NCBI GenBank assembly: GCA_017991835.1
Contig: JAGOPY010000001.1
Coordinates: 147,892 to 211,891 of the forward strand
Length of the DNA: 64,000 nucleotides
Direction: 5' to 3'
Source of the DNA: Bacteroidales bacterium
GTDB lineage: Bacteria > Bacteroidota > Bacteroidia > Bacteroidales > JAGOPY01
Position numbers and translations under genes: made by a program. Within the stretch, counting starts at the first letter, position 1. Every line of letters begins with the position of its first letter. Under the pieces are notes generated by a model. It saw only the letters and a list, made by a program, of their open reading frames with translations, was not told the origin of the DNA and did no database searches. Below, in pieces: positions 5,383-60,699 of this stretch.

Positions 5383-6027
5383 ATGCCAGGATTATTAACC
5401 CGATGTACGGTTTATCTGATGGCTTCATTATGGATGAACGCATTATTTAGCCAGCAGGAACTGTCGATCATCCGGTCGTTCACTACCGACAATGGCTTTC
5501 CGGATAACGATGTCAGATGGATCACCCAGGACAGTCTGGGCTTTTTATGGATCGCCACCTGGGATGGCCTGGTAAGATACGATGGGGTGGAATTCAAAAC
5601 CTACCGCCACGATCCGAATGTCGCCAGCAGCCTGGGGTATTTCGAAGTTAGTATGATCATCGCCGATAAATTCAATCATATCTGGATCCGGACGGGTACA
5701 AAGCTCTGCCGGTACAACCCGGCCGGCGATGATTTCATCGTTTATGACCAGGCAAAAATTACCGCAGGTTCTTATCGGGAAAAGCCTGAATACTTTCAAA
5801 CCATCCTGGCCGATCCCGATCATGTTTTACATGTGAAATACGGCCGGGAATTTTACCGGTACAACAACGCGACCGATTCTTTTTCGCCGGTAAAAATTCA
5901 TTCAGATGAAACGGACTTGTCGGAGATCAACTATGCCGCATTCGATGATGCCGGCTTTTTGTGGTTATTCGAGCTGTTCTTAAATTTTAAACCTGAAAAT
6001 TATCAAGATAATAATCCTTTTTTTTGA
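5383..6027 (+). pseudogene. N-terminal remnant of a two-component-regulator-propeller (hybrid sensor / Y_Y_Y type) protein
   Basis: FTTDNGFPDNDVRWITQDSLGFLWIATWDGLVRYDGVEFKTYRHDP is the typical first propeller blade of Bacteroidetes sensor proteins, which usually exceed 1000 aa. This ORF stops after about 215 aa and is followed by about 450 bp with no convincing coding frame. Confidence 0.5.
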
Positions 6028-6388
6028 GTACAATAATATTTAACTCCTGTTAATTCATAATGAATAACTGATAATCAAAGTAAACCAGCTAACAAACTAT
6101 ACGTTTGGATTCAATTAATCACACTTTGTCATCGTATACTTTGATAAGTGCCTCCCCTCCCCTTATTCCCCTCCCATGCCGTCTTCGTTTCTTAAAATAA
6201 TATTCTCCGGGGAGGGGATAATTATTGACTATCCGACGCTTCTGCATCTGCAACTATTGATCCCCTTCGGAGAAGGTGGAGACAAATATAAAATTGCTCC
6301 ATTTCAATCCTTGATTCTAATGATCAGGTCAAAATGGCCCACGGAGAATAGATACTTTTCGGAAAGTTCTTCCTGCCTTTATTAGCTT

Positions 6389-6475
6389 TGGAACCTGGAA
6401 CCTGGAACCTGGAACCTGGAACCTGGAACCTGGAACCTGGAACTTTGGAACTTTGGAACTTTGGAACCTTGAACT
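6389..6475. repeat. tandem array (TGGAACC)x7 + (TGGAACTT)x3
   Basis: Counted directly. It ends 6 nt before the ATG at 6482. Confidence 0.9.
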
Positions 6476-6481
6476 AACCCC

Positions 6482-7171
6482 ATGCACCTCATCACTATCG
6501 GCGACCTCCACGGCTCCGCAGCCTGGAAACGGATCAACCCGCTCAAATACGACCGGGTGATCTTTGTGGGCGATTACGTCGATTCTGGCCGGTATAATGA
6601 TGAAGCCATCTATGCCAACCTGAAATCGCTGATACAATGGAAAGAAAAATTGCCGGACAGGATCGTTCTTCTTTGGGGTAACCACGACCTGGCCTATTTC
6701 TACGGCGGTCACGAACGGCACTATTGTTCCGGCTTCCGCCCCGATATGCTCTCCCGCCTCTTTTCATTTTATACCCACTACCGGTCGCACTTCCAGGCTG
6801 CTTTCCAGATCGGCAATTACCTCTGGACCCACGCCGGCGTTGTGCAACGATGGTTCGACCATTGTATCGGCAGCGAAGTGCTTCCTTCCGACCAGAACCT
6901 GGCGGCTACCCTGAACCGACTCTTTGACCAATATTATGAGCCCCTTTATTATGTGAGCGTCATCCGGGGCGGCGTAAATGAAGACGGCGGCATTTTCTGG
7001 GCCCACCGGACCGAAACGCTCGAAGATCCGCTGAAAGGCTACCACCAGATCGTAGGGCATTCACAGACACACGAGGGAATCGTCGTCGCCGACCATTTCG
7101 GCCCCGATACCTCCGTGACATATGTCGACTGCCTGACGACAAGCCCGGAGTTTTATAAATTGGAGATTTGA
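6482..7171 (+). CDS. metallophosphoesterase (Ser/Thr phosphatase-like)
   Basis: Calcineurin-like motifs GDLHG, GDYVDSG, GNHD and a later GH. Confidence 0.75.
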   Translation: MHLITIGDLHGSAAWKRINPLKYDRVIFVGDYVDSGRYNDEAIYANLKSLIQWKEKLPDRIVLLWGNHDLAYFYGGHERHYCSGFRPDMLSRLFSFYTHYRSHFQAAFQIGNYLWTHAGVVQRWFDHCIGSEVLPSDQNLAATLNRLFDQYYEPLYYVSVIRGGVNEDGGIFWAHRTETLEDPLKGYHQIVGHSQTHEGIVVADHFGPDTSVTYVDCLTTSPEFYKLEI

Positions 7172-7330
7172 GGATTGGGAGATTTGACGATTTGACGAAG
7201 GGATATTCGATTGTCCATTGTCGATTTTCGATTTTCGATTTTATTTTGAATTTAGATTTTGAGATTTGTTTGGTTTTTGGAGCTTGTGATTTGGAATTTT
7301 TATTGATATTTACAGGATAAATTCAGATCT
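7163..7330. repeat. degenerate GATTT-type tandem repeats incl. (TCGATTT)x3
   Basis: GAGATTTGAGGATTGGGAGATTTGACGATTTGACGA..., then TCGATTTTCGATTTTCGATTT at 7221-7241. Fills the gap before the acyl-CoA dehydrogenase gene. Confidence 0.7.
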
Positions 7331-7338
7331 GCGATTTT

Positions 7339-8478
7339 ATGGATTTCAACTTTTCCGAAGAACAACTCATGATCCGGCAGGCGGCGAAAGATTACGCCGA
7401 GCGGGAACTGATCACCGATGTGCTGGAACGCGACGCCAAAGCGGAGATTCCCTGGCGGCATATCAAAAACCTGGGCGAGCTGGGCTTTTTCGGCATCATG
7501 GTCGACCCGAAATACGGCGGCGGCGGGATGGATACGCTTTCATACGTGCTGGCAATAGAGGAGATCTCCAAGATCGACGCGGCCATGGGGGTGATCCTTT
7601 CGGTCCACAACTCCCTTCCCTGCTACGGCATCCAGAAGTACGGCACCGAAGTGCAGAAAGAGAAATACCTGCCCGACCTGGCCTCCGGCCGGAAGATCGG
7701 CGCTTACCTGCTCTCCGAGCCGGAAGCGGGCTCCGACGCGACATCGCAGAAAACGACCGCCGAAGACAAAGGCGACTACTACCTGATGAACGGCACCAAG
7801 AACTGGATCTCCAGCGCCAACAGCGGCAGTATCTACATCGTCATGGCCCAGACCTACCCGGAGCTGGGTCACAAAGGGATCAACGCTTTTATCGTCGAAA
7901 AAGAGTGGCCGGGAATAAGCCTGTCACCGCACGAAGACAAGATGGGCCTGCGCAGCTCCGATACGCATTCGGTGATGTTTACCGATGTGAAGGTACCCAA
8001 AGAGAACCGGATCGGTGAAGACGGGTTCGGCTTCAAATTCGCCATGAAACTGCTCGAAGCGGGCCGCATCAGCATTTCGGCCCAGGCCACCGGCATCGCG
8101 GCAGGGGCTTTCGAACGGTCGGTCAAATACGCCCAGGAACGCAAAGCCTTCGGCAAGCTGCTCGTTGACCACCAGGCCATTGCGTTTAAACTGGCCGATA
8201 TGGCCGTAAAACTGGAAGCGGCCCGGAATTTCGTCTATAAAGCCGCCTGGCTCAAGGATAACAACCAGCCGTTCAGCCTGGCTTCCAGCATGGCCAAGCT
8301 GTTCTGCGCCGATGCCGCCATGGAGATCACCACCGAAGCGGTCCAGATCCACGGAGGGTATGGCTATGTGAAAGAATACCATGTAGAGCGCCTGATGCGC
8401 GAAGCCAAGGTCACCCAGATCTACGAGGGGACGAGTGAGATACAGCGGATCGTGATCAGCAGGGCGCTGAGGGGGTAG
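7339..8478 (+). CDS. acyl-CoA dehydrogenase (short-chain/butyryl-CoA type)
   Basis: 379 aa with full-length ACAD features (LSEPEAGSD, QIHGGYGY, YEGTSEIQR). Lies upstream of etfBA. Confidence 0.9.
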   Translation: MDFNFSEEQLMIRQAAKDYAERELITDVLERDAKAEIPWRHIKNLGELGFFGIMVDPKYGGGGMDTLSYVLAIEEISKIDAAMGVILSVHNSLPCYGIQKYGTEVQKEKYLPDLASGRKIGAYLLSEPEAGSDATSQKTTAEDKGDYYLMNGTKNWISSANSGSIYIVMAQTYPELGHKGINAFIVEKEWPGISLSPHEDKMGLRSSDTHSVMFTDVKVPKENRIGEDGFGFKFAMKLLEAGRISISAQATGIAAGAFERSVKYAQERKAFGKLLVDHQAIAFKLADMAVKLEAARNFVYKAAWLKDNNQPFSLASSMAKLFCADAAMEITTEAVQIHGGYGYVKEYHVERLMREAKVTQIYEGTSEIQRIVISRALRG

Positions 8479-8481
8479 ATG

Positions 8482-8552
8482 GATTGTTCGATTGTTCGAT
8501 TGTTCGATTGTTCGATTGTTCGATTGTTCGATTGTTCGATTGTTCGATTGTT
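8482..8552. repeat. tandem array (GATTGTTC)x~9
   Basis: Starts 4 nt after the acyl-CoA dehydrogenase stop. Perfect octamer periodicity. Confidence 0.9.
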
Positions 8553-8574
8553 AATCTTACTGTCAAATATTATA

Positions 8575-8662
8575 ACAATTGAACAATTGAGCTGTTGAAC
8601 AATTGAGCTGTTGAACAATTGAGCCGTTGAACAATTGAACAGTTGAACAATTGAGCCGTTGA
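8575..8662. repeat. tandem array of 16-mer GAACAATTGAGCYGTT x~5
   Basis: Read directly. Its GAACAAT core is the reverse complement of the core of the preceding array, so the two arrays can form a long imperfect hairpin. Confidence 0.85.
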
Positions 8663-8724
8663 CTAATCTTTTTTATCTTTGATGATTCTTTTAATCATTA
8701 ATTTTAAACTGGAGGATATGTGGG

Positions 8725-9102
8725 ATGGAAAAGAAATATTTAAAATTAAATGATATTGATTCCTATAAGAGGGCTTTTCATCTGAGTAATAAAGTCTGGA
8801 ACATCGTAATTTCCTGGGATCATTTTTCGAAAAATACTGTCGGATCGCAATTTGTCCGGGCTGTGGATTCAATTTCTGCAAACCTGGCTGAAGGTTTTGG
8901 CAGATTTTCCAAAAAGGATAAGATTAAGTTTTATCGCATTGCAACGGGTTCGCTAAAAGAATCTTTGGATTGGAATGAAAAGTCAAAACATCGAAACCTG
9001 ATATCGGAAGAAATCTATCTGGAAATATTTAATGAACTGAATGCATTGCCATTAGAGATCAACCAACTTATAAAATACATAAATATGTCTCTTAAAAAAT
9101 AA
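8725..9102 (+). CDS. four-helix-bundle protein (23S rRNA intervening-sequence protein family)
   Basis: 125 aa. QFVRAVDSISANLAEGFGR...KFYRIATGSLKESLDW matches the family signature as I remember it. Confidence 0.75.
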   Translation: MEKKYLKLNDIDSYKRAFHLSNKVWNIVISWDHFSKNTVGSQFVRAVDSISANLAEGFGRFSKKDKIKFYRIATGSLKESLDWNEKSKHRNLISEEIYLEIFNELNALPLEINQLIKYINMSLKK

Positions 9103-9117
9103 TATTAAATTTGCCCG

Positions 9118-9199
9118 ACAATAGAACAATAGAACAATAGAACAATAGAACAATAGAACAATAGAACAATAGAACAATAGAACAATAGAACAATAGAAC
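9118..9199. repeat. tandem array (AACAATAG)x~10
   Basis: Perfect octamer array ending 2 nt before the etfB ATG. Confidence 0.9.
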
Positions 9200-9201
9200 C
9201 C

Positions 9202-9951
9202 ATGAAAATCCTCATCTGCCTCTCCAACGTCCCTGATACCACGACAAAAATCAAATTTACCGGCGATATGAAAAGTTTTGATGCTGCCGGTGTGCAATGG
9301 ATCATTAACCCGTGGGACGAACTGGCGCTGACCCGCGCCCTGGAACTGAAGGAAACCTCGGGCGCCACCATCGAAAAAGTGACCGTGCTGACCGTTGGCA
9401 AAGCCGATACCGAGCCGACCCTGCGCAAAGCGCTGGCCATCGGCGCCGACGACGCGGCCAGGATCGACGCCGATCCGAAAGACGCCTACCAGGTAGCTTC
9501 CCAGATCGCCGGCTTCCTGAAAACACAGCCGTATGAGATCGTCCTCTGCGGAATCGAATCCAGCGATTACAACGGGAGCATCGTCGGCGGGATGCTGTCG
9601 GAATTCCTCGACTGTACCTCGGTTTCTTCTGTTTCCGGATTGCAACTGGAAAACGGTACCATCCGGCTCAACCGCGAAATCGACGGCGGACAGGAGGTGG
9701 TGGAGGCCGGCGTTCCATTCGTTGGCATCGTTCAGAAAGGAATTGCCAAAGAGCCCCGTATCCCTTCGATGCGCGGTATCATGATGGCACGGTCGAAACC
9801 GCTGGCTGTGGTTCCGGCATTCGAGACCGAAGAGCTGACCGAGTTCACCAGCTATGAACTGCCCTCCGCGCACGCCAAATGCAAAATGATCGATGCGGAA
9901 AATATCGGCGGACTGGTGGAGGTGCTGAAAAATGAACTGAAAGTAATTTAG
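9202..9951 (+). CDS. etfB: electron transfer flavoprotein subunit beta
   Basis: MKILICLSNVPDTTTKIKF..., 249 aa, typical EtfB. Directly followed by etfA. Confidence 0.9.
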   Translation: MKILICLSNVPDTTTKIKFTGDMKSFDAAGVQWIINPWDELALTRALELKETSGATIEKVTVLTVGKADTEPTLRKALAIGADDAARIDADPKDAYQVASQIAGFLKTQPYEIVLCGIESSDYNGSIVGGMLSEFLDCTSVSSVSGLQLENGTIRLNREIDGGQEVVEAGVPFVGIVQKGIAKEPRIPSMRGIMMARSKPLAVVPAFETEELTEFTSYELPSAHAKCKMIDAENIGGLVEVLKNELKVI

Positions 9952-9985
9952 TTCAAAGTTCAAAATTCAAAATTCAAAGTTTATA
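9951..9985. repeat. tandem heptamers (GTTCAAA/ATTCAAA)x~5
   Basis: Overlaps the etfB stop and lies upstream of etfA. Confidence 0.8.
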
Positions 9986-10001
9986 ATTTAGAATTCTTAA
10001 T

Positions 10002-10973
10002 ATGTCAGTATTAGCTTTTACAGAGAATTGGGACGGTAAGTTCAAGAAGATCAGCTTTGAACTGATCTCATATGCACATCAGCTTGCACAAAAAATGGGG
10101 ACGCATGCGGTCGCGTTATCGATCGGCAGTGTTTCGGAAGATGAGCTGAATAAGCTGAAGCATTACGGCGCTTCAAAGATCATCAAAGTGGAAGACAGCC
10201 GGATCGACGGCCTGGTGAACAAGGCATATGCCGCCATCATCGCCCAGGTGGCCGAAAAGGAAGGGGCAAATGTTGTGGTGTTCTCACATAATTTTACCGG
10301 CAAGGCCCTTGCTCCGAGAGTGGCCGTGAAACTGAAAGCCGGCGTGGCATCCGGCGTGAATGCCGTTCCCGATTCTGTCGAACCGTTTGTAGTAAAAAAA
10401 GGGGTATTTACCGGGAAAGCTATCGGCCACATCACGATAAAATCGCCAATTAAAGTGCTGACACTTTTCCCCAACAGCGTGGAAACCCTCACGGCCGACG
10501 AGCCTGCAACGATCGAATCGTTCACTCCGCAGCTGACCGACGCTCATTTCGGAACCAAAGTAGTCGATGTAAAAAAAGTAACCGATCAGATCCTGCTGAC
10601 CGATGCCGACGTCGTTGTTTCAGGCGGCAGGGGAATGAAAGGCGCCGACAAATGGGGACCGCTGGAAGAGCTCGCAGGGCTGCTGGGAGCTGCATTGGCA
10701 TGCTCCAGGCCCGTCAGCGACGAAGGCTGGCGCTCGCATCATGAACATGTGGGCCAGACCGGCAAAGTCATCGGCCCCAACGTCTACATCGCCCTGGGCA
10801 TCTCGGGCGCTATCCAGCACCTGGGAGGCGTCAGCGCTGCCAAACACATCATCGCCATCAATACCGATAAAGACGCTCCCATCTTCGAAGCCGCCGAATA
10901 CGGCATGGTGGCCGATGTTCACCAGGTGCTGCCGCAGCTGGTGGAAGCAGTGAAAGAAGCGAAGAAACATTAA
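10002..10973 (+). CDS. etfA: electron transfer flavoprotein subunit alpha
   Basis: C-terminal FAD-binding region (VVSGGRG...GQTGKVIGPNVYIALGISGAIQHLGG...IIAINTDKDAPIF). Confidence 0.9.
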   Translation: MSVLAFTENWDGKFKKISFELISYAHQLAQKMGTHAVALSIGSVSEDELNKLKHYGASKIIKVEDSRIDGLVNKAYAAIIAQVAEKEGANVVVFSHNFTGKALAPRVAVKLKAGVASGVNAVPDSVEPFVVKKGVFTGKAIGHITIKSPIKVLTLFPNSVETLTADEPATIESFTPQLTDAHFGTKVVDVKKVTDQILLTDADVVVSGGRGMKGADKWGPLEELAGLLGAALACSRPVSDEGWRSHHEHVGQTGKVIGPNVYIALGISGAIQHLGGVSAAKHIIAINTDKDAPIFEAAEYGMVADVHQVLPQLVEAVKEAKKH

Positions 10974-11052
10974 GATATTTTGATATTTTGATATTGTGAT
11001 GTTGTGATATTGTGATGTTGTGATATTGTGATGTTGTGATGTTGTGATATTA
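10974..11052. repeat. tandem octamers (GATATTGT/GATGTTGT)
   Basis: Begins directly at the etfA stop codon. Confidence 0.85.
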
Positions 11053-11181
11053 TGGCATTATCATGTTTTGATTTTTTTTGTTTTGCTTTTGTGATTTATT
11101 GTTTGAAAGAGAGATACCGGGGGGATTCAACGGAGGACTATAACACAGAAGATAAAACACAAAACTTAGGATTTAAAACTT

Positions 11182-11904
11182 ATGCCGACTGTTGTTTCTC
11201 TCCATTCTGATATCCTCGATTTCTGCCGGGCCAATGCCGATGAGGCGCTGGTAAGAAAGTACTCCCGCTATTTCAAAGAAGGAGGGTATGACGCATATGG
11301 CGTGACTTATCCGTTGATGCAGGAGAAGGTGAAATCTGTCCTGGAAACGCCCGGGGTTGATCTGGGATTGATCATGGAACTCAGCCGGCTGCTTGTCCCC
11401 GGGACCAAATACGAAGAGCCTGCCATTGCCCTGATGCTGGTCAAAGCCATGAAGAAGCACTATACCGATGATACTTTCCGGGAGATCGTCCACTGGTTCG
11501 ATATCGGAATACGCAACTGGGCCCATACCGATGCGCTGTGTTCGGAGATCTTGTCGGTTTTCCTTCTGAAGAAGATCGTAGATTATAAAGAAATTGGAAA
11601 ATGGAAACAGGGGGAGAATAAATTTCAGCGGAGGGCGGTGCCGGTTGCATTGATCAAACTGATGAAAGAGACGAAGAGAGTTGAGGAATATGTTCGTTTT
11701 ATCGAGCCGCTGATGATGGATGCAGAGCGGGAGGTGCACCAGGGGGTTGGCTGGTTCCTGAGAGAGGCGTGGAAGATTGATCCTGAACCTGTTGAAGAAT
11801 TTTTACTGAAATACAAAAACACTGCCGCCCGCCTTATCTTTCAGTATGCTACGGAGAAAATGACGCCGGAGGGGAAGGCGAGGTTCAGGAGGGAGAAAAG
11901 GTAA
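11182..11904 (+). CDS. DNA alkylation repair protein (AlkD-like HEAT-repeat)
   Basis: About 240 aa. Pattern WAHTDALC ... FQRRAVPVALI ... VHQGVGWFLRE is typical of the DNA alkylation repair enzyme family. Confidence 0.7.
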   Translation: MPTVVSLHSDILDFCRANADEALVRKYSRYFKEGGYDAYGVTYPLMQEKVKSVLETPGVDLGLIMELSRLLVPGTKYEEPAIALMLVKAMKKHYTDDTFREIVHWFDIGIRNWAHTDALCSEILSVFLLKKIVDYKEIGKWKQGENKFQRRAVPVALIKLMKETKRVEEYVRFIEPLMMDAEREVHQGVGWFLREAWKIDPEPVEEFLLKYKNTAARLIFQYATEKMTPEGKARFRREKR

Positions 11905-11910
11905 TAGTCA

Positions 11911-14847
11911 TCAAATTTTATCCTCAAGGTCTTTGAAATTATCAAACCAATATTTACGGTAATCCTGAGGTACGGCGGCAATACCACCCTGTGCAGGCAT
12001 TAGAAACAGTTTTGCTGCAATCCGAAAACCATTGTAGGTAAACATCCTGGGATGACCTGAAAGTGGATCTTCATAAATCTGCCTGAATCCATCAATTTTT
12101 AATATTCCATCCGTATGGGCAGTCCCTTTTGGATCGATAAATAGTATCTGGTAATCAGATCCTTTTTTTAACCAGAATATAAAATCGGGTTTGAATCTTG
12201 AAATCCTGTTTTCCCTAAGGCTATAATAAGGAATATATACCTCATCAAGACTTTGATCCAGCTTTGAAAACATCCACCAATCAAATCTTTTAAATAAAAT
12301 GCCGCTATTTTTCAGGTAATCGCTTAATAATTCAAGGAATTTTACTTCACTGGGAACTGTTATAATGTGATTTAAGTAATCCAGCTTTTCCCTCTCCGAA
12401 ATAATCAACGGAATATAATAGTGATTCGGAATATACTTAATGTGCAGTTCCTCAAATGTAGCCTCCTCCAGAAAATCTAATTCAAGCTGCCTGATTTTTT
12501 GCTTATAGATGTCCCGATCCTGTGTTTCATCAAATTCTTTGTCTATGTCTTTTTCTTGTTCGGCTTTGTGTTCATAATTCTTGACCTGTTTGATCTTCTC
12601 CAGGATTGAATCATATCTGACGCCATCATCGAACCTGATCTTTTTAAAATGAACGATCTCCTCCTCCAGCTCTTTAAACCGCTCCAGTTCCTTATTTCGA
12701 ATGCCCAGGTAATCGAAAATTCGTTTTAGAATCAGAACAGGATCAGAAATTGACCGTGACTCGCTAAAATCAAAGTATTGATCCTGATCGTCAAAACATT
12801 TCGCAACTTTCTCCAGGATCTTCAGATTGGTTTCAAACTTAACCAGAGTTACCTTATTTCCAAGATATTCATAAAGCGTCCTTCCGAGGGCAAAGTCACT
12901 TTTACTGATCCGAAACTTCTGAACAGTATTCTCCTCAGCGTAGTTTTTTTCCGAATCTTTATAAACAGGGATCAATAATTGCTTTTCTTCCCTGGCTTTA
13001 TTGACCTGAAATTCCTGACCGATGTCACGGCCTGTTCTTTGTTCTCTAAGCGTCTGAATTATTTGCTTCAGGTTTGCAGCATTGGTTCCAAACACGTACA
13101 GGCTCTCAACCGGCAATATGCTAGTTTTCAAATCCTGGAAAAGCCTTGCCGGTACCTCGTTTCCGGAAACAAGATTTTGGAGTCTTTTTCGCTTGTTCTT
13201 CAAAGGCTCGATCCTTACTCCCCGGCCCACTGATTGCAAAACGAACTTTTTTGCATCTTTGCCCATACCAATATTGACAAAAAGAACGATATTCGGCCTG
13301 TTTGAGTCCCATCCTTCATAGAACGATCTGGAACCCATCAACAAATTGATTTCCGAGTCATCCTGGTTAAGCTTTTTAAAAATACTTTCATTTTCAAAGC
13401 TTTCGTTGATTTCGTATCCTTCAAGCTTGTCTTTCAGCCAGCCCGAAATATCCCCGATTTTAATGAGTCCGAAGGGTTTATCCGATGACTGAAGCTTGAA
13501 AATGATCTCATTTCTGTTACCGGGAATTTTTAAAACCTCAATCCTACCCGGAAATGACGAATTGTAAATATTCTCGGTAATATCCTGGTATTGAATCTCC
13601 CTTAAGAGCTCCTTGTTAATATTAAGATTCAGCTGTTCGAATTCATAAGAGGGATTATCTTCAATTTCCTTGATTAACTCCTCTCTGGCTGTGTTAAAAA
13701 AATCTTCAGGAATTTCATTAGCAGCGATTTTCTCAATTTCCGAAAAGAACAATTGCAAATCCGATTCTTCCGTATCGACTGAATTGACTAATGTCAACAA
13801 CAATGGCCTGTGATACAGCGATTGATGATACTGCCTGATCTTCCTGAAATATTTATTGATGTAGGTTAGCAGGATTAAGGTTTTGAGGACAATCTTCTGT
13901 TTTTCAATGAGCGAATAATCGTCCTTATCGCGGAATGCTGTAACCTTGGAACCGGAAATATAAATATGTTTCCCATAGCCCTCTTCGATAAATCTCGAAA
14001 GATTGAAATTAAAAACACATGTTGCATAATCTCGTGGATCCGTGAATGTTGCCGAAAAGTTGAATAAAAATCCGTTCCGTGTTAAGATGGTATAAAGTAT
14101 CTGCCTTTTACTGTCCTCTTTATCTCCTTTGTGGGCTTCATCCAGGATGATATACCACTTGCCTTCGTTTTGGTAATTCTTATAACTGATGATCTTCTCC
14201 TTCTGCTCATCCGAGATCAGGTCGGAGCGGTAATAAAATACAGTGATTTCATTTTTACCAAAAGATAAAACATTTTCATGCTTAACCTGGTCGTACTCCT
14301 TAAGGCTTTTCAGGTTGATTTTGCTATCGGAATTGAATGCATTGAACTGCTCGACATGGTTTTTAAACTGGTCGATCAGGTCATCCCGGTGGGCAAGAAA
14401 TAAAATATCCCTGGCCGGTATTTCATTGTTCTGCAATAATTTACGAAGTAAATCTATGAGCTTGACAATGACCAGCGTCTTTCCTGAACCAGTGGCCATC
14501 CAGTAGCTCATCCGGTTAATGAAGTATGCAAATGAGATTTTCCTGTTTTGTACCGGATAATCTTTCTCATATTCCATCAGAAATTTTGCTGTTTTTCTTT
14601 CCTCTTTGCCTTCCAGGTTAAAATCAAGATTCTCTTCAATATCAAAGTAGCCGTAGAATTTATCTTTTTCCCCGTTTTCATCTTTATAAAAACGATGAAG
14701 CGCTTTCAGCGTATTTTTCAAAGCGTCTTGCTGAAAGTTGAAAAGGGTCTTATCTTCCGAGAACCGGCCAAAATCAAAGTCCTGCCATACCTCAGGAAGG
14801 TTATCAAACGAAATATTATCGGCTATGGATTGGAGGTAAAGTTTCAT
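11911..14847 (-). CDS. res: type III restriction enzyme Res-like subunit (SF2 helicase + PD-(D/E)xK nuclease)
   Basis: Helicase motif I MATGSGKT, motif II ILDEAHKG, motif III SATF, motif VI QSVGRGVRI. C-terminal candidate nuclease motif FKPDF...FIDPKG. 978 aa, similar in size to EcoP15I Res. Overlaps the upstream gene by 4 nt (ATGA). Confidence 0.8.
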   Translation of the reverse strand: MKLYLQSIADNISFDNLPEVWQDFDFGRFSEDKTLFNFQQDALKNTLKALHRFYKDENGEKDKFYGYFDIEENLDFNLEGKEERKTAKFLMEYEKDYPVQNRKISFAYFINRMSYWMATGSGKTLVIVKLIDLLRKLLQNNEIPARDILFLAHRDDLIDQFKNHVEQFNAFNSDSKINLKSLKEYDQVKHENVLSFGKNEITVFYYRSDLISDEQKEKIISYKNYQNEGKWYIILDEAHKGDKEDSKRQILYTILTRNGFLFNFSATFTDPRDYATCVFNFNLSRFIEEGYGKHIYISGSKVTAFRDKDDYSLIEKQKIVLKTLILLTYINKYFRKIRQYHQSLYHRPLLLTLVNSVDTEESDLQLFFSEIEKIAANEIPEDFFNTAREELIKEIEDNPSYEFEQLNLNINKELLREIQYQDITENIYNSSFPGRIEVLKIPGNRNEIIFKLQSSDKPFGLIKIGDISGWLKDKLEGYEINESFENESIFKKLNQDDSEINLLMGSRSFYEGWDSNRPNIVLFVNIGMGKDAKKFVLQSVGRGVRIEPLKNKRKRLQNLVSGNEVPARLFQDLKTSILPVESLYVFGTNAANLKQIIQTLREQRTGRDIGQEFQVNKAREEKQLLIPVYKDSEKNYAEENTVQKFRISKSDFALGRTLYEYLGNKVTLVKFETNLKILEKVAKCFDDQDQYFDFSESRSISDPVLILKRIFDYLGIRNKELERFKELEEEIVHFKKIRFDDGVRYDSILEKIKQVKNYEHKAEQEKDIDKEFDETQDRDIYKQKIRQLELDFLEEATFEELHIKYIPNHYYIPLIISEREKLDYLNHIITVPSEVKFLELLSDYLKNSGILFKRFDWWMFSKLDQSLDEVYIPYYSLRENRISRFKPDFIFWLKKGSDYQILFIDPKGTAHTDGILKIDGFRQIYEDPLSGHPRMFTYNGFRIAAKLFLMPAQGGIAAVPQDYRKYWFDNFKDLEDKI

Positions 14848-15677
14848 GATTTATCCCGCAATTTTTTTTTACTCTCAGGTGATTTCAGGTAGTTTTCCCT
14901 GGAAGATATTTTCCTGCCAAGGCGTTTTTCAAGCTTCCGTTTTGCATCGCCGGCAATATTGCCCCCATCCCGCGCATCTTTCTTTAACTTTGGCATCCCC
15001 TGGGAGTCTTCATTTCTGGTAATTTCAGTGGTTGCGCGTTCGCCCAACATGGTAAATATCAGTTCAAAATCATTCATGTGATCCCTCAGGTTCTCCCGCT
15101 TCAGGCCTTTGAAGTTTTTATATTCCGAAGGAGTCATTCCGAAGGTAGCTTTTGAGATTTCTGCAGTTAAAATCTCATAATCCTTTTTTTCTTCAGCGCC
15201 GCGTTTCTGCCATTCATCCGTGAGTTCTTCCCGGATGGCAATTCCCCTTATACGCTTTTCAATCCAGTCGTCGCTGTAGCCTTTCAGTTTGTATAGTATC
15301 CGCGTTCTTTTGGTAGCCAGCTCGGGATTTTCGATCTCTTTGACCCGTTCGAAACCGGTTCTGGCTAACCAGCGTTTGAATGGCTCTGCTTTCGGCGATG
15401 GAATGGATTGGATGATCCTGAATATGCCTTCGGTGTCTGCACAGTCCGTTTCACGGAGCTTTCCGTCGGGAGCAGGCAATTTCAACCCGTGACAGTTTGT
15501 CACGACTTCACTTCCTTCTTCTTTCAGTCGCTGTTTCAGTTTTCGCCAGTATGCGCCGGGATCGACACTTTCTGTCAAGACTCCGCAAACATCCACTACT
15601 GAGAACCACCATTCATCCTCATGCAGAATCTTACGAACCTGCTTTCCCTTAAATAATGCAATCTTCGTCGGTTCCAT
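14844..15677 (-). CDS. Bro-N domain / DinD-like protein embedded between mod and res
   Basis: N-terminus FKGKQVRKILHEDEWWFSVVDVCGVLT...KAEPFKRWLA fits the Bro-N pattern. C-terminal KGLKRENLRDHMNDFELIF... resembles the E. coli DinD C-terminal region as I recall it. Starts 1 nt after the mod stop, and its stop overlaps the res start. Confidence 0.65.
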   Translation of the reverse strand: MEPTKIALFKGKQVRKILHEDEWWFSVVDVCGVLTESVDPGAYWRKLKQRLKEEGSEVVTNCHGLKLPAPDGKLRETDCADTEGIFRIIQSIPSPKAEPFKRWLARTGFERVKEIENPELATKRTRILYKLKGYSDDWIEKRIRGIAIREELTDEWQKRGAEEKKDYEILTAEISKATFGMTPSEYKNFKGLKRENLRDHMNDFELIFTMLGERATTEITRNEDSQGMPKLKKDARDGGNIAGDAKRKLEKRLGRKISSRENYLKSPESKKKLRDKS

Positions 15678-15678
15678 C

Positions 15679-18081
15679 TTATTCCCACCAGATTAAAGGT
15701 TTGACCAGCCGGTAATCCAGCTCTTTCGTATTGATCCTGCTTCCATCGGCAAATTCCACTTCGTTTTCCCGGATGGCTTTTATCCATTTGCCGGTAAGAT
15801 TCGATAATGTCTCCGCTACATCAATGCCCGGGTAAAGCTTTTCGAGGTCAATACTTACTTTATTTTGCTCATAATCAATCTCTAATGCCTTCAGCATCTT
15901 TTCATCTTTCAGGAAAACATACTGGCTGTATGCCTTTTCATCATTTTGATTAAACAAATCCGAGTCGTTGTAAATACACTTGTTTAAGGCCTCTTCGTAT
16001 TGCTCGAGCTCGTAGTATTTGAAGAAACCGCCGCCTGCAAATCCATTTTCTTTTGCAACAACAGTATTTCTACCATTATATAAATCCCCCTTTAATCTCG
16101 GTATTATCTCAACATAAAAATGTTCTGCTAGCTCAATTCCAATGAACTTTCTCTTTTCAATTTTCAACGATGTACAGACTGTTGTTCCACTACCAGCATA
16201 AAAATCCAAAATAATCCCTCCAGCATTCGAAGATGACTTAATTATTCTTTCTAATAATTTTTCTGGCTTTTGTGTATCAAAATTAACTCGCTCATTAGAT
16301 GTAGGTTGTTGTTGAAATGATTTAATGTCATTCCAAACTTCAACAAAAGGTGCATTTTCATCAACTGTTTGAGTTAACTCTCTCCATACTTCTGGAAATG
16401 GTCTTTGAATATCAATCAGATCACTAAGCATATTCCACACATCACCATATGGTTTCTGTTTTTCAAGTATGTCTTTTTTATAGATTCTTCTACCATGAGC
16501 CACTTGGAATAATTCACCTCTTTCATCTTTTTGTTTGAAGCTTTCAAGATACTTAAGTGTATGAGGTTGAATTACTTTATTAAAAATGCTTCTCTCAGCT
16601 TTTGAATAAAAAAGTATATTTTGGTGGCCTAGAATCCAATTATAAATAGCTCCTTTAACTTTATATCCTGAAAGGACCTGAATATCCCAAATTAATTCCC
16701 TTTTAAAACATTCTTTACCAAAAACATGGTTAGTTATTAGACGTCCCAGATAATTAGCATTCTCATCAAGATGAATGTAAAGGTTTCCATTCGATTTTAA
16801 CAAGCTATTTGAAAGACTAAGCCTGTCATTTAAAATAGACAACCATGTGCTATCTTGATAATTATCAATATAATCAAAATCATCTCCTGTATTAAATGGA
16901 GGATCTATATAAACTAAATCAATCTTGCTTTTGAATTTCAGTCGAATGGTAATCAGCGCCTGGTAGTTTTCGCTTTTGATAAGCCAGCCGTCGAGTTGCC
17001 GGTCGAGGTTGTCGAATAATGCCAGGATCTCAAGCTCAAGGCTTTTAAAATATTTCGTATCGAAAGGCAGGTGTTCAAATTTCTTGTCCCCCTGTATATC
17101 AGCGGTTTTGAATTGTTCATCCACAATACCTAATTCCTGCCATTCCTTAATTTGTTCCTTTATTCCCGGATGTTCCAGCAGTTTTTTAACCAGGCCGGCA
17201 TCGGTTATTTTATCAAGGGTAATAACGTAATTGCTGTTTTTAACGAATTTGGGCTTGTTCCATATCTTCACCAGTTCATCTTCAAACTGGGCAATGAAAT
17301 CAATGATCCTGAACGCGATGCTTTTCAGGACCTGAAGCTGGTTAACCCGTTCGCCCGACCATTCTTTCGCGCCATCCCAGAAATACTGGAAGCTCCAGAG
17401 CTTGAACTGCTCCTGCAGGAATGCCCGGGCATTCTTATTGATAAAGAAATCCACCTCGCTTTGCTTCTCAAATACCCTGAAAGCCCGTTCAAGCTGTTCT
17501 TCGGTAATCGCAATATTTTTCTTTTTCAGGTCTTTTAAAATATCTGCAGTTTTCGTAACTGTCCCTTTTTCAGAGTATTTCGTGATAAATAATATTGTTC
17601 CGTCTTCCCTTACATTCTTTAATTCAAAGATGACGGTCCTCTTTTCATTCGCTTTCTTGTTTTCAATTGTTCCGGCATCGAAATAAAACTTCAGTTCCTC
17701 GAATTCGACCGGCATACTCTTAAAAATCCGGTCCGTCTTTACATAATAGAGCATCTGGGTTTTCCAGAACAGGATCACGTCTTTCTCATCGGTGTAAACT
17801 TTTTCGTAGATATTATTGTGGAAAGGCGTGGAATTGAAATAGATAGAGCCACTTTGGGTAAAATAGCGGCTGAAAAAAGAAAATAATTTATCGAAAAGCT
17901 CATCACGAAAATGAGGGTATTGTTCTAAAGCATGGTCAATATCAGCCTGGAGCACCTTTTCAATCTGTGCATAATAACCGGATTTAATGCGCATCAGGTT
18001 AATAAATCCACCCTTACCCTCAATTTTAGCTCCTATAAAAACGTCCTGAAGCGCTTTGTAAAACTTATTTTCTTTACTCAT
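15679..18081 (-). CDS. mod: type III-like DNA methyltransferase Mod (beta-class N6A/N4C) with long N-terminal extension
   Basis: Motif IV LVYIDPPFNTGDDF precedes motif I ILDFYAGSGTT (order IV then I = beta class), with an intervening region of about 245 aa. About 390 aa lie upstream of motif IV. Confidence 0.8.
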   Translation of the reverse strand: MSKENKFYKALQDVFIGAKIEGKGGFINLMRIKSGYYAQIEKVLQADIDHALEQYPHFRDELFDKLFSFFSRYFTQSGSIYFNSTPFHNNIYEKVYTDEKDVILFWKTQMLYYVKTDRIFKSMPVEFEELKFYFDAGTIENKKANEKRTVIFELKNVREDGTILFITKYSEKGTVTKTADILKDLKKKNIAITEEQLERAFRVFEKQSEVDFFINKNARAFLQEQFKLWSFQYFWDGAKEWSGERVNQLQVLKSIAFRIIDFIAQFEDELVKIWNKPKFVKNSNYVITLDKITDAGLVKKLLEHPGIKEQIKEWQELGIVDEQFKTADIQGDKKFEHLPFDTKYFKSLELEILALFDNLDRQLDGWLIKSENYQALITIRLKFKSKIDLVYIDPPFNTGDDFDYIDNYQDSTWLSILNDRLSLSNSLLKSNGNLYIHLDENANYLGRLITNHVFGKECFKRELIWDIQVLSGYKVKGAIYNWILGHQNILFYSKAERSIFNKVIQPHTLKYLESFKQKDERGELFQVAHGRRIYKKDILEKQKPYGDVWNMLSDLIDIQRPFPEVWRELTQTVDENAPFVEVWNDIKSFQQQPTSNERVNFDTQKPEKLLERIIKSSSNAGGIILDFYAGSGTTVCTSLKIEKRKFIGIELAEHFYVEIIPRLKGDLYNGRNTVVAKENGFAGGGFFKYYELEQYEEALNKCIYNDSDLFNQNDEKAYSQYVFLKDEKMLKALEIDYEQNKVSIDLEKLYPGIDVAETLSNLTGKWIKAIRENEVEFADGSRINTKELDYRLVKPLIWWE

Positions 18082-18260: not shown

Positions 18261-18791
<531 letters not shown>

Positions 18792-21346: not shown

Positions 21347-21357
21347 TGGAATAAAAT

Positions 21358-21412
21358 GAGACTCCATCTCGAATCGGTGAGACTCCATCTCGAATCGGTG
21401 AGATGGAGTCTC
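21358..21412. repeat. GAGACTCCATCTC composite element (2 direct units + 1 inverted unit)
   Basis: Units at 21358, 21379 (direct, 21-bp spacing, linker GAATCGGT) and 21400 (inverted, GAGATGGAGTCTC). It starts 12 nt after the TonB-dependent receptor stop. Confidence 0.85.
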
Positions 21413-21496
21413 ATTAAAAAAATATTTAACTCCATTCGATCTATCATGTAATTTTCATAATTTTAAGGCATTAGAAATTTGCCTATCGGTGAAATT

Positions 21497-23641: not shown

Positions 23642-23716
23642 GACTCCATCTCGAACCGGTGAGATGCCATCTGCTTTCACTCGAGACTCCATCTCGAAAA
23701 ATTGAGATGGAGTCTC
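23640..23716. repeat. GAGAYNCCATCTS composite element (3 direct + 1 inverted)
   Basis: Units at 23640, 23661, 23683 and inverted at 23704. The first unit overlaps the TGA stop at 23639-23641. The terminal hairpin is GAGACTCCATCTC-gaaaaatt-GAGATGGAGTCTC. Confidence 0.85.
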
Positions 23717-23775
23717 ACAGTGCACGGATATGCCAGGCGGAACAAATGATTGATATATAGCTTTATAAGTAGATT

Positions 23776-25932: not shown

Positions 25933-25974
25933 TTGCCTCTTTTATGCTTCGAGCAAGATGGATTGTAGGTGATC

Positions 25975-26050
25975 GAGACGCCATCTCAAATCGGTGAGAC
26001 TCCATCTCCTTTCATCGAGACTCCATCTCGAAAAATTGAGATGGAGTCTC
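25975..26050. repeat. GAGAYNCCATCTS composite element (3 direct + 1 inverted), near-copy of 23640-23716
   Basis: Units at 25975, 25996, 26017 and inverted at 26038. It has the same linkers (aaatcggt, ctttcatc, gaaaaatt) as the 23640 element. Confidence 0.85.
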
Positions 26051-26173
26051 ATTAATTAAAAAAATCTACATAAATATCTAGACTTTTCCTATATTTTTGC
26101 TTATATTTGACCCTCAATCCTTTACTAAAGGATAATTCAACCTTATTATCAATTAATCCAAAAAATCTTACGT

Positions 26174-27274: not shown

Positions 27275-27280
27275 TGGGTT

Positions 27281-27408
27281 GAGATGCCATCTGGTTGCAT
27301 TGAGATGCCATCTCAATATCGTGAGACTCCATCTGGTTGCCACGAGACTCCATCTCGAAGAAAAATTTCACTTTAAGATGGAGTCTCACTTAACTGAGAT
27401 GGAGTCTC
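27281..27408. repeat. GAGAYNCCATCTS composite element (4 direct + 2 inverted, nested hairpin)
   Basis: Direct units at 27281, 27302, 27323 and 27344 (exact 21-bp period). Inverted units at 27375 and 27396 (also 21 bp apart). Inner and outer arms can pair as a long interrupted hairpin. Confidence 0.85.
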
Positions 27409-27450
27409 CTTAATAAATAGTAATTTTACCTTCCTATATCAACCGTACCC

Positions 27451-31073: not shown

Positions 31074-31165
31074 GATGGCATCTCAAATCAACGTCGTATT
31101 GTTTATAACTAACTATAAATAAGTTTATTGGCTTCAACAAAATAGGGATTCGGGATGCCATCTCA
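31072..31165. repeat. pair of GAGATGSCATCTC palindromes about 81 bp apart
   Basis: GAGATGGCATCTC at 31072-31084 abuts the menA TGA. GGGATGCCATCTC at 31152-31164 contains the ATG of the CPBP gene. Confidence 0.7.
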
Positions 31166-31808: not shown

Positions 31809-31945
31809 GTTCAGGGTTCTGTTGTTCCAGTGTTCAATTGTTCTATTGTTCTATTGTTCTGTTGTTCTATTGTTCTGTTGTTCTATTGTTCTATTGTTCT
31901 ATTGTTCTATTTCTATTTCTATTGTCTTTGTCTTTTGTTCCATGG
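31809..31945. repeat. tandem octamers (GTTCTATT/GTTCTGTT), reverse complement of the 9118 array word
   Basis: TTCTATTG is a cyclic permutation of CTATTGTT, which is the reverse complement of AACAATAG. Confidence 0.9.
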
Positions 31946-35046: not shown

Positions 35047-35068
35047 AAGGGATGGCGTCCCTTTTTTT
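35047..35068 (+). terminator. intrinsic terminator after the 32041..35013 cargo gene
   Basis: AAGGGA-tggcg-TCCCTT stem-loop followed by a T run. It is preceded by a direct copy of GGGATGGCGTCCC and a GGGAC-ctc-GTCCC hairpin. Confidence 0.6.
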
Positions 35069-35102
35069 GAGATGGAGTCTCATTTAAACGAGACTCCATC
35101 TC
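35069..35102. repeat. GAGATGGAGTCTC / GAGACTCCATCTC hairpin element
   Basis: 13-bp arms at 35069-35081 and 35090-35102 with an 8-nt loop, immediately after a separate terminator. Confidence 0.85.
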
Positions 35103-35237
35103 AATTTAATGCCTTCTGTTTTATACCTTTACCTAATGTTTTATTAACTTGAAGGAATTTGCGCATAAACAAGGTTGATGAAAATCAAAGAGAACCAAAA
35201 GGCAATCTTCTTCTAACAATCTTATTATCTGTACATT

Positions 35238-35693: not shown

Positions 35694-35703
35694 GAGACCA
35701 TAT

Positions 35704-35731
35704 CGAAAATCGTAAATCGTAAATCGAATAT
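35704..35731. repeat. tandem heptamers (CGTAAAT)x~4
   Basis: CGAAAATCGTAAATCGTAAATCGAATAT, between convergent genes. Confidence 0.8.
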
Positions 35732-36825: not shown

Positions 36826-36875
36826 ATCCTGAATAAATTCTAATCATCCCAAAATCAAATCCCAAAACCATTCCC

Positions 36876-36912
36876 TTTTCACTCTTCACTTTTCACTTTT
36901 CACTCTTCACTA
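36876..36912. repeat. tandem heptamers (TYTTCAC)x~5
   Basis: TTTTCACTCTTCACTTTTCACTTTTCACTCTTCAC. Overlaps the MscS stop. Confidence 0.85.
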
Positions 36913-38504: not shown

Positions 38505-38545
38505 ATGTAAACTAAGCCCTTGGTTATATAACAAAGTTACATAAA

Positions 38546-38584
38546 ATTGAGATGGAGTCTCAATTTTTGAGACTCCATCTCAAT
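38546..38584. repeat. 39-nt near-perfect palindrome built from the same 13-mer
   Basis: ATTGAGATGGAGTCTCAA-ttt-TTGAGACTCCATCTCAAT: 18-bp arms and a 3-nt loop. It lies in the divergent gap between the MscS gene and the 38662 cargo gene. Confidence 0.85.
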
Positions 38585-38661
38585 ACCAACTCTTTTTCCT
38601 CCTACTTTTGATAGTCGATTTCAGGAAAAACTCCTGGTCATCATTTAACCAAAACTGTATT

Positions 38662-42918: not shown

Positions 42919-42957
42919 TTACGCCGCAAAAATAACCTTTAACTACCAATCCCTGAC

Positions 42958-48958: not shown

Positions 48959-48994
48959 ATCATTAACTCTAAAACTCATAACTAAAATTCGTAA

Positions 48995-60695: not shown

Positions 60696-60699
60696 TTTC

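Follow-up and report, generated by a model that had tools for sequence, protein, structure and literature searches.

A four-helix-bundle gene between inverted octamer arrays in the acd-etfBA unit of a Bacteroidales bacterium: probable resident copy of an IVS-like cassette

What is a small gene, bracketed by mirror-image arrays of octamers, doing between an acyl-CoA dehydrogenase gene and the genes for the electron transfer flavoprotein? The analysed stretch of DNA (hereafter the window) measures 64 kb, and the insert is the 723-nt spacer that separates the acyl-CoA dehydrogenase (acd) stop at 8478 from the etfB ATG at 9202. The host genes and all parts of the insert lie on the forward strand. 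The upstream host is acd (7339-8478; Pfam Acyl-CoA_dh_N/M/1; stop codon TAG at 8476-8478), and downstream follow etfB (9202-9951; Pfam ETF) and etfA (10002-10973; Pfam ETF and ETF_alpha). The first-pass annotation had reported, in this order, a ninefold array, a fivefold array, a 125-aa gene and a tenfold array, and all four parts were recovered at the positions given there. The left arm, (GATTGTTC)x8.9 at 8482-8552 (TRF, 100% matches), begins 4 nt past the acd stop. Its counterpart on the right, (ACAATAGA)x10.2 or (GAACAATA)n, occupies 9118-9199 (TRF, 100% matches) and stops 2 nt short of the etfB ATG. The left array had also been described as approximately the reverse complement of the right one, and indeed 7 of the 8 positions per unit match. 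An inverted-repeat search delimits outer arms of 69 nt that are 88% complementary, and the alignment of the two flanks reaches z=38 relative to shuffles. The GC content of the insert is ~0.31-0.36 and that of acd and etfBA 0.54-0.58.

Between the left arm and the gene lies a middle array, (GAACAATTGAGCYGTT)x5 at 8574-8662 (TRF), which is oriented like the right arm. TRF resolves it as the 16-mer TTGAACAATTGAGCCG at 8579-8662 (5.2 copies, 92% matches), and a broader array with the period of AACAATTG spans 8574-8654. In the RNA fold, positions 8553-8573 form the loop of a long hairpin between the left arm and the middle array, and a T6 run can be read directly 3' of it (8669-8674). Hairpin and T6 run constitute what looks like a terminator arrangement; the terminator scan made no call at this point because the hairpin loop exceeds 8 nt. 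A pattern search for the Bacteroidetes -7 consensus TAnnTTTG identified two boxes, TATCTTTG (8674-8681), which fits it and lies 44 nt ahead of the ATG of the gene, and the -7-like TAAATTTG (9106-9113), located between the stop codon of the gene and the right arm. A Shine-Dalgarno-like GGAGGA (8711-8716), read from the sequence, precedes the ATG by 8 nt. Among the orthologous loci, the first box is kept in L083-L092 and both GGAGGA and the second box in L081-L092. The boxes at 8674 and 9106 are putative promoters by virtue of this clade conservation solely, since TAnnTTTG is not enriched in the window as a whole (43 found, 36 expected); in Bacteroidota, scanning for sigma-70 promoters carries no information. 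In the window region Rfam yielded nothing real, only sub-threshold miRNA-hairpin matches, and an rRNA search of window positions 6000-11500 gave no match.

The gene itself (8725-9102) encodes a 125-aa four-helix-bundle (4HB) protein of the S23p/Avd superfamily. Its scores exceed the curated cutoffs of both PF05635 (23S_rRNA_IVP; 83 bits against 33.8, E=2e-23, residues 10-108) and NCBIfam TIGR02436 (86.7 bits against 24, E=1e-24). At E<=1e-5, 3016 homologues were recovered, and the closest PDB entry is 2GSC (XCC0516). The dN/dS ratio within the clade is 0.02-0.09, with synonymous sites saturated, and the ORF is under strong purifying selection. To our knowledge, a helical bundle of this size contains no catalytic motif (PF05635 structures, e.g. 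2GSC and bAvd). Thousands of PF05635 copies carry only the annotation 'four helix bundle protein', and the proteins have been termed 'functionally uncharacterized' since rRNA intervening sequences (IVSs) were described in the early 1990s (PMC4990558). PADLOC returned just one spurious, weak Avs2 match, and the gene was assigned to no defence system.

The first-pass annotation had likened the insert to a cassette with repeat-built inverted termini, and had suggested looking for such arrays beside the other 4HB paralogues of the genome. The flanks of 76 non-redundant homologues (55-99% identity, from Bacteroidota and Patescibacteria) were scored by local alignment of the arms, with z>4 taken as significant. 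Flanking inverted repeats were significant for 62 of the 76 (82%; median z 7.9 in subfamily A), for 12 of 19 divergent PF05635 genes (63%), the units being different, and, in the control set of 260 ORFs, for 6.5%. Several of these control matches proved to be unrecognised 4HB genes or genes directly beside one, and at least five of the best-scoring ones belong to PF05635 themselves. The cassette description is accurate for the insert and, with 62 of 76 homologues, extends to the family. The best period was 8 in 67 of 94 upstream and 72 of 94 downstream flanks, with ATTG[T>c]TNN as upstream and NNA[A>g]CAAT as downstream unit logo, and the number of units per arm has its mode at 4 (33/68 left and 29/68 right arms). 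Within a locus the variable NN bases are complementary between the arms (0.84, against 0.60+-0.04 for permuted loci); a mirrored-register test of the unit order, which relied on crude unit indexing, gave 2.36 in register and 2.33 off register (p=0.40). The divergent PF05635 subfamilies have other units at similar periods (TTAGACTT/AAGTCTAA, GCTGATTA/TAATCAGC, ATTTAATC and 11-mers). The left and right arms in the window are expanded forms of the family arms ATTGYTNN (upstream) and NNARCAAT (downstream).

The cassettes are co-oriented with the left neighbour in 66 of 70 and with the right neighbour in 58 of 66 cases (~90%), at median gaps of ~62 nt. The neighbours represent 122 Pfam families, and the occupied junctions include acd-etfB, sdhA-sdhB, trpG-trpD (in a cultured carrier, Tunicatimonas pelagia, at CP120683.1 ~4.4985-4.5039 Mb) and T4SS operons, one of which, from CPR, holds three cassettes. 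The same cassette with the same arm core recurs at numerous junctions that have nothing in common, and in both phyla, with proteins that are 63-72% identical. 4HB genes with mirror-image octamer arms in operon spacers apparently represent a widespread, undescribed class of cassettes; the searchable literature, of which our coverage was incomplete, provided no description of this architecture, and an earlier one is possible.

The class shows clear parallels with the IVSs in the 23S rRNA of Leptospira, Coxiella burnetii, Xanthomonas and Brucella, which encode S23p, a protein of the same PF05635 family. The IVS of Coxiella measures 428-444 nt and carries the S23p ORF within a 28-bp terminal stem; RNase III cleaves it, and its GC content is below that of the genome (PMC4990558). 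The canonical 4HB cassette is ~440-470 nt long, its ORF likewise lies within terminal inverted repeats that could form a stem of ~28-32 bp (69 nt at 88% in the window), and its GC content is below that of the host. Both occur sporadically, a pattern suggestive of elements that were acquired horizontally and then maintained by vertical descent (PMC4990558). IVSs, however, reside in rRNA helices 9/25/45, whereas the cassettes lie between protein-coding genes of operons, here acd and etfB instead of a 23S or 16S rRNA helix. Unlike IVSs, the cassettes have octamer-periodic arms with a conserved core, and their ORF is under purifying selection, whereas the S23p of Coxiella was reported to be probably not made (PMC4990558). 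rRNA was absent from all 80 homologous metagenome loci, and the link to true IVSs is therefore one of architecture and protein family only.

We favour, with moderate confidence, the reading that the insert is a resident copy of such an IVS-like 4HB cassette in an mRNA operon, with arms that expanded in this particular lineage. The canonical cassette consists of an ORF of ~125 codons with ~4 ATTGYTNN units upstream and ~4 NNARCAAT units downstream, placed co-directionally in an operon spacer. Repeat slippage would have extended the arms to 9 and 10 units in the lineage of the window, and a third array, which folds back onto the left arm, would have arisen. The 9-10 units, compared to the canonical 4, are peculiar to this lineage, the genome of which has short-period arrays in many spacers.

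Comparison of orthologous loci adds a history to this reading. An empty site among relatives, as the first-pass annotation had proposed to look for, is present in L001, which of all genomes in the GTDB set comes nearest (acd 85% and etfB 84% identical) and is sister to the clade of the window: its acd-etfB spacer is 151 nt long and lacks a 4HB gene. In most of 80 related loci this spacer measures 25-285 nt. The clade of the window is monophyletic and the remaining carriers are dispersed over the tree, with patchy presence at acd-etfB and etfB-etfA and empty sister sites. As judged from these comparisons, the cassette of the window's clade is old and vertically inherited; either it would have entered the junction once the L001 lineage had branched off, or L001 would have lost it. 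Across L081-L092 the left arm counts 4-13 units, and the right arm 8-11 in the orthologues; copy number differs even among strains with a 99% identical 4HB protein, and the arm core is kept despite saturated synonymous divergence. The middle array is confined to the window, L081 and L082, is degenerate in L083/L086 and is absent from L087-L092. In L077 there is a hairpin that lacks an ORF but shares its arm units with the sister L058, the ORF of which contains an in-frame stop. The 4HB proteins at acd-etfB in L007, L028, L103 and L171 are 63-70% identical to the window protein, CPR copies being equally close, and for the acd-etfB 4HB genes across clades an old orthologous gene that was lost in places and several independent insertions fit alike. 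L001 also contains a giant palindrome with array arms, for which Rfam gave nothing.

As to what the arms do, a stem of ~30-70 bp would form from them in a read-through transcript and would keep the message of the cassette apart from those of acd and etfBA. By analogy with IVSs, the stem may act in insulation or in processing of the RNase III type, a suggestion to which we give somewhat less than an even chance. RNA folding gave an MFE z of -5.1. In the sense RNA the duplex of left arm and middle array (-92 kcal/mol) is stronger than that of left and right arm (-71.5 kcal/mol), and the hairpin at 8479-8690 reaches -93 kcal/mol; the GAGCYGUU units of the middle array pair with the left arm at 7 of 8 positions through G.U wobbles. 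The stronger left-middle pairing had been overlooked in the first-pass annotation. In the clade of the window, this hairpin and the U-run may end the acd message, and the internal -7-like boxes may restart transcription. Boxes and terminator-like hairpin together suggest separate transcripts in the clade, in which case one RNA might never contain both outer arms. Over 84 arm alignments only 81% of the arm positions are Watson-Crick pairs, and a wobble signature of sense RNA is not in evidence (142 G.U-type and 140 A.C-type mismatches). In 44 ORF-less acd/etf spacers the MFE revealed no advantage of the sense strand, the antisense strand being slightly better, as base composition predicts. Pairing by itself leaves the conserved arm core unexplained. 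The 6-nt core at fixed 8-nt spacing implies that something sequence-specific would also read the arms, possibly the encoded ring-forming protein.

The same core, which is conserved more than pairing needs, and the lack of an excess of RNA-specific wobble pairs would also be in line with a DNA-level mobile element, in which the arms are terminal inverted repeats (TIRs) of iterated binding sites that are moved in trans by a recombinase or transposase and in which RNA pairing is incidental. This is unlikely, though a range of observations fits it: the occurrence in many unrelated junctions of two phyla, the patchy distribution with empty sister sites, the low GC content of the insert, the MITE-like appearance of the ORF-less derivatives and the palindrome of L001. 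On the other hand, there is no transposase or recombinase within or beside the cassette, no target-site duplication is seen at the arm ends, and the helical bundle has, as far as we know, no catalytic motif. The ~90% co-orientation with host genes would be unexpected unless selection filters insertions, and the cassette of the window's clade stayed in place while synonymous sites saturated.

Known classes of DNA elements offer partial likenesses. Foldback elements possess long inverted termini composed of short tandem repeats, MITEs look like the ORF-less hairpin derivatives, and integron cassettes are similarly small, promoter-poor ORFs that are co-directional and adjoin an imperfect palindrome. 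The 4HB cassettes differ from these in having no transposase, integrase, attC core sites or target duplications, and they occupy ordinary operon spacers, whereas integron cassettes are found at an attI platform. A TIR transposon or MITE was rejected for the insert: its sole ORF is the 4HB gene, and the sequences just outside the arms (ending in GTAGATG on the left and starting with CCATGAAA on the right) are unduplicated, likewise in L087. An integron cassette was rejected too, as GATTGTTC and GAACAATA by inspection do not fit RYYYAAC/GTTRRRY and no integrase is nearby. REP/BIME elements, finally, also form stable stem-loops between co-transcribed genes and can shape differential mRNA stability, but REPs are short single palindromes that lack the enclosed ORF and the octamer periodicity of the cassette.

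A further possibility, compatible with the resident-cassette reading and in our view rather improbable as it stands, is that the octamers are sites for the encoded ring-forming 4HB protein. In analogy with TRAP, which reads triplet repeats, RNA or DNA might be wrapped with one unit per subunit, a notion we rate no higher; equally doubtful is the corollary that the protein would regulate itself and its neighbours, with the complementarity of the arms providing a competing stem. A six-nt core with two variable bases, the strict 8-nt period, the sharply modal number of four units per arm, the distinct units of divergent subfamilies at similar periods and the strong purifying selection on the protein are all consistent with binding arrays. 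Moreover, Avd, a factor of diversity-generating retroelements (DGRs), belongs to the family and binds nucleic acid. Toroidal pentamers are known from the family as well (2GSC; PMC4990558). However, four units have no obvious fit to a pentamer, hairpins that have no ORF are maintained although the protein is not encoded in cis, and the specificity of unit for subfamily is inseparable from shared descent in the present sample. Less probable still is the more far-reaching version, in which a toroidal 4HB oligomer would be a TRAP-like, sequence-specific reader of its own octamers and thereby form a self-contained protein-RNA or protein-DNA module acting as a parasite or a regulator in the spacers of operons and the loops of rRNA. 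If true, it would provide the first function for the S23p/IVS-protein family and would explain why the DGR relative Avd binds nucleic acid; it might also explain the spread of the cassettes.

Avd and the 4HB protein are related in fold and family (PF05635/PF22296) and are small, oligomeric and nucleic-acid-associated. A PF22296 co-match was seen in the family; the window protein has no such match. A DGR comprises a reverse transcriptase and a template/variable repeat, whereas none adjoins the 4HB gene. The genes within ~5 kb (Reg_prop, Metallophos, acd, etfB, etfA, DNA_alkylation and a ResIII helicase) include no reverse transcriptase, and a DGR was rejected.

That nothing specific is involved, the arrays being a genome habit of short-period spacer repeats and their inversion around the 4HB gene a coincidence, is very improbable. 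In its favour, arrays with units of 7-8 nt are present in about a dozen other spacers of the window and often stop just a few nt short of a start codon. Some units reappear, that of the left arm at 31816-31940 and, at 42956-43039, the complement of 9950-9996, and abundant intergenic heptamers upstream of start codons are known from Beggiatoaceae, Cyanobacteria and some Bacteroidetes (PMC4679880). Against it, complementary arrays bracket no other gene in the window, orthologous arms keep their core across saturated synonymous divergence, and inverted octamer arms are also present at 4HB genes where the genome shows no general expansion of arrays, as well as in another phylum. The difference between 4HB loci and control genes contradicts it too. 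The array habit accounts for the length of the arrays, not for their existence or inverted orientation. In this respect the window resembles genomes with start-codon-upstream repeats (the TAACTGA heptamers of Beggiatoaceae, those of Cyanobacteria and some Bacteroidetes, and the cyanobacterial STRR), which have 7-8 nt intergenic arrays that often end a few nt before the start codon and vary in copy number between strains. The window contains 15 merged arrays in 64 kb, LSSR/STRR-like in that most are intergenic and several end 2-7 nt before an ATG. STRR and heptamer arrays, however, are single and forward, whereas the 4HB arms form an inverted pair around a specific gene family. The short arrays in many window spacers had escaped the first-pass annotation; arrays alone are not special.

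The stereotyped cassette ties the scattered 4HB paralogues to the architecture of rRNA IVSs, and it supplies concrete candidate ligands for the protein, (AUUGUUNN)4 and (NNAACAAU)4. The octamer arms offer a simple sequence signature by which cassettes and ORF-less relics can be annotated. The cassette also has a bearing on the question of how operons tolerate or use genes inserted into them, and on where the Avd of DGRs came from. Besides its arrays, the window has a REP-like palindrome family of its own.

Between the end of acd at position 8478, the host gene upstream of the insert, and the etfB ATG at 9202, the window carries a left array of (GATTGTTC) (8482-8552; 8.9 perfect copies), followed after a 21-nt gap by a middle array of the 16-mer TTGAACAATTGAGCCG (8579-8662; x5.2), a four-helix-bundle (4HB) ORF of 125 codons (8725-9102) and a right array of (ACAATAGA) (9118-9199; 10.2 perfect copies), which stops 2 nt before the etfB start. 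The layout proposed in the first-pass annotation was thus borne out, with every component located where it had been placed. In a profile search the ORF clearly matched PF05635 (23S rRNA IVS protein; 83 bits) and also TIGR02436 ('four helix bundle protein'); the nearest solved relative of its product is the pentameric XCC0516 (PDB 2GSC). The left array had been described as the approximate reverse complement of the right one, and indeed the units are reverse-complementary at 7 of 8 positions, giving 69-nt arms with 88% complementarity (z=38 against shuffles in a local alignment of the flanks). The GC content of the insert is ~0.31-0.36 versus 0.54-0.58 for acd and etfBA. Neither a transposase, an integrase nor a reverse transcriptase was found among the genes at the insert, and Rfam contained no family for the region. 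Target duplications were absent from the arm ends, both in the window and in the orthologous locus L087.

Tandem repeats of 7-8 nt were detected with TRF in about a dozen further intergenic spacers of the window, including 6389-6474, 7162-7260, 18715-18753, 35702-35726, 36870-36915, 42956-43039, 48993-49028, the etfB-etfA spacer (9950-9996) and the region downstream of etfA (10974-11072). Often such an array stops 2-7 nt short of the next start codon, in sense orientation, and units recur in both orientations, as AGTTCAA (9950-9996) is the complement of TTTGAAC (42956-43039). They resemble the intergenic heptamer/octamer arrays that have been documented genome-wide, and left unexplained, in some Beggiatoaceae, Cyanobacteria and Bacteroidetes (PMC4679880). 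One array (31816-31940; (GTTCTATT)x16.5, i.e. (ATTGTTCT)n) has a unit identical to that of the cassette's upstream arm; it is flanked by a CAAX-protease gene and the gene of a T9SS-tailed protein, lacks a 4HB gene and a complementary partner, and may be what remains of an arm or else have arisen independently. Because the spacers are so rich in short-period arrays, and the habit is documented in other bacteria, arrays alone are no evidence of a cassette; the question asked was therefore how specific the inverted pairing around 4HB genes is.

A metagenome scan with the 4HB protein as sole query yielded 80 more loci (59-91% identity). Arms were scored by local alignment of the 150 nt upstream of a gene with the reverse complement of the 150 nt downstream, at a cut-off of z>4. 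Of 76 non-redundant subfamily members (median z 7.9), 62 exceeded this value, as did 12 of 19 divergent PF05635 genes, versus 6.5% of 260 other ORFs of those loci (median z 0.1). Five of the top-scoring control ORFs proved to be unrecognised PF05635 genes, and others were adjacent neighbours sharing an arm. Among 94 flanks per side, autocorrelation was strongest at period 8 in 67 upstream and in 72 downstream, with unit logos ATTG[T>c]TNN and NNA[A>g]CAAT, respectively. Outside the window's clade the in-phase run was sharply modal at 4 units per side (33/68 and 29/68), and the 9-10 units of the window are an expansion of this canonical 4+4. The variable dinucleotide is locus-specific (AA/TT, TC/GA, CG/CG, CT/AG), its complementarity being 0.84 between the arms of a locus versus 0.60+-0.04 between loci. 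Divergent subfamilies kept period and inversion with different units (TTAGACTT/AAGTCTAA, GCTGATTA/TAATCAGC, ATTTAATC, and an 11-mer in locus L058). The initial description of a cassette with repeat-built inverted ends is thus supported and can be extended beyond the window copy: judged from these flanks, such ends characterise PF05635 genes outside rRNA throughout the family, an architecture of which we found no description in the literature searched, coverage of which was incomplete.

The closest precedent, by analogy, is the ORF-bearing 23S rRNA IVS. In Coxiella this element (428-444 nt, GC content below that of the genome) carries an S23p ORF of the PF05635 family, and inverted repeats at its borders form a 28-bp stem that is cut by RNase III (PMC4990558). 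The canonical cassette (32 + ~380 + 32 nt) looks like the same object, but in a messenger setting, and on this likeness we class the window cassette with the IVS-type elements. All 80 metagenome loci lacked rRNA. The neighbours were ordinary operon genes of 122 Pfam families (e.g. acd|etfB, sdhA|sdhB, CoA-transferase subunits, dxr, leuS, prpD), at median gaps of ~62 nt, and were co-oriented with the cassette on the left in 66/70 and on the right in 58/66 cases. In a type IV secretion operon of a Patescibacteria genome (GCA_013138925.1; L178 1054-3531), PrgI, TraC-like and TraG genes are interspersed with three PF05635 genes of different subfamilies, each of the three with its own type of flanking repeat; the second of these PF05635 genes carries the arms of the window's subfamily (ATTGYTNN/AACAAT). 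The cultured Tunicatimonas pelagia (CP120683.1; L188 2404-2500) has a 4HB gene between trpG and trpD with (TGGTTGC)x11 upstream, and offers a usable experimental system.

All proteins 80-99% identical to the window 4HB protein occupy the acd|etfB junction, where (NATTGTTC)n invariably begins 3-4 nt past the acd stop and (GAACAATN)n stops 2-5 nt before the etfB ATG. Copy number varies among strains with a 99%-identical protein (left 6, 9 or 13; right 8-11), and the middle array is limited to the window's sub-clade. The eighth unit base is polymorphic in both arms (left G/T/A, right A/C/T), so that many unit pairs are fully complementary. Within the window's clade the ORF showed a dN/dS of 0.02-0.09, and the arm core ATTGTTC/GAACAAT is constant despite saturated synonymous sites (pS 0.5-0.88). 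The protein is functional, and what maintains the arms is selection or else homogenisation that goes on continuously.

An etfB scan with one genome per species gave 80 loci, among which acd|etfB spacers without a 4HB gene measured 25-285 nt. In the acd+etfB tree the cassette-bearing window clade is monophyletic, and its sister L001 (85% and 84% identity) provides the empty site, a spacer of 151 nt. Same-subfamily genes occupy this junction in four other lineages (L007, L028/L171, L058, L103), each beside sisters without it, and in at least 9 further loci it is the etfB|etfA spacer that houses a PF05635 gene, a divergent one. L028 (5595-5972 and 6842-7207) and L171 carry two cassettes of different subfamilies in one operon, at acd|etfB and etfB|etfA. 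The L058 gene (5518-5895) has an in-frame TAG at the position of a Trp in other copies. Its sister L077 has an ORF-less spacer that retains a hairpin of the L058 arm units (ATTGTTTC ATTGCTTC ATGGTTAC, a 35-nt loop, then CATGAAAC AATGAAAC AATTGAGC AATGAAGC); the two look like snapshots of cassette decay. Inverted short-period-array hairpins also occur in other 'empty' spacers (L062, L061, L005, L054/L080, L014, L027). The patchiness, the TAG and these hairpins therefore suggest that cassettes arise, decay to ORF-less hairpins and vanish. The window copy itself is an old, vertically inherited and selectively maintained resident; its arms have undergone amplification, in a genome prone to arrays.

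To judge from their strong co-orientation, cassettes seem to rely on read-through transcription from the host, and we therefore consider it most likely that the arms pair in the operon transcript, forming a stem for processing or insulation. Two tests for an RNA-specific signature came out neutral: in 84 arm alignments pairing was only 81% Watson-Crick and no RNA-specific wobble excess was seen (142 wobble-type versus 140 A.C-type mismatches); ORF-less spacers folded no better in sense than in antisense. In the sense-strand fold of the window, the left array pairs with the middle rather than the right array (duplexes of -92 versus -71.5 kcal/mol), in a G.U-wobble-dependent hairpin of ~85 bp (-93 kcal/mol). 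A T6 run lies 3' of this hairpin, followed by TATCTTTG. This sequence fits the -7 consensus of Bacteroidetes, as does TAAATTTG, found after the 4HB stop and ahead of the right array, and both are kept across the window's clade. Given these features, the insert may yield separate messages in the window lineage: it would terminate the acd message and drive 4HB transcription, and etfBA transcription would start anew, the A-rich (AACAAUAG)n array serving as its leader.

The conserved six-base core at fixed spacing exceeds the needs of pairing, which points to sequence-specific recognition. The reader could be the encoded, ring-forming 4HB protein itself, in a TRAP-like manner. The same core could point to a trans-acting recombinase and hence a DNA-level mobile element, although transposase, integrase and target duplication are lacking at the insert. 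Pairing in the transcript, recognition by the protein and mobility are not mutually exclusive. The octamer arms are a concrete, testable candidate ligand for the long-unexplained PF05635 family.

Some other elements were observed. Downstream of etfA in L001 (MAG Bacteroidales KA21; 5605-6185) lies a near-perfect 580-nt hairpin (RNA MFE -356 kcal/mol, z -25.6) with inverted octamer arrays (GTAGGACN)x15 and (NGTCCTAC)x18 as outer arms and an internally palindromic core of 300 nt; neither a convincing ORF nor a match in Rfam was found for it. In the window, a REP-like palindrome family (GAGACTCCATCTC…GAGATGGAGTCTC) occupies at least 7 intergenic spacers (21357-21420, 23642-23775, 25960-26060, 27275-27450, 31074-31154, 35060-35120, 38545-38600), in some of which two or three direct half-sites precede the inverted one. 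A 484-bp unit is duplicated in tandem at 60606-61556 (2.0 copies, 95% identity), each copy with one ORF of ~95-111 aa (60693-60980, 61129-61464) and TTAACAATTGTTAA palindromes upstream. Finally, a low-GC block (0.37-0.38) on the minus strand at 11911-18081, with a gene for a ResIII/SWI2-SNF2 helicase-type protein of 978 aa and two other large ORFs, looks like an acquired restriction/defence island beside the etf operon.
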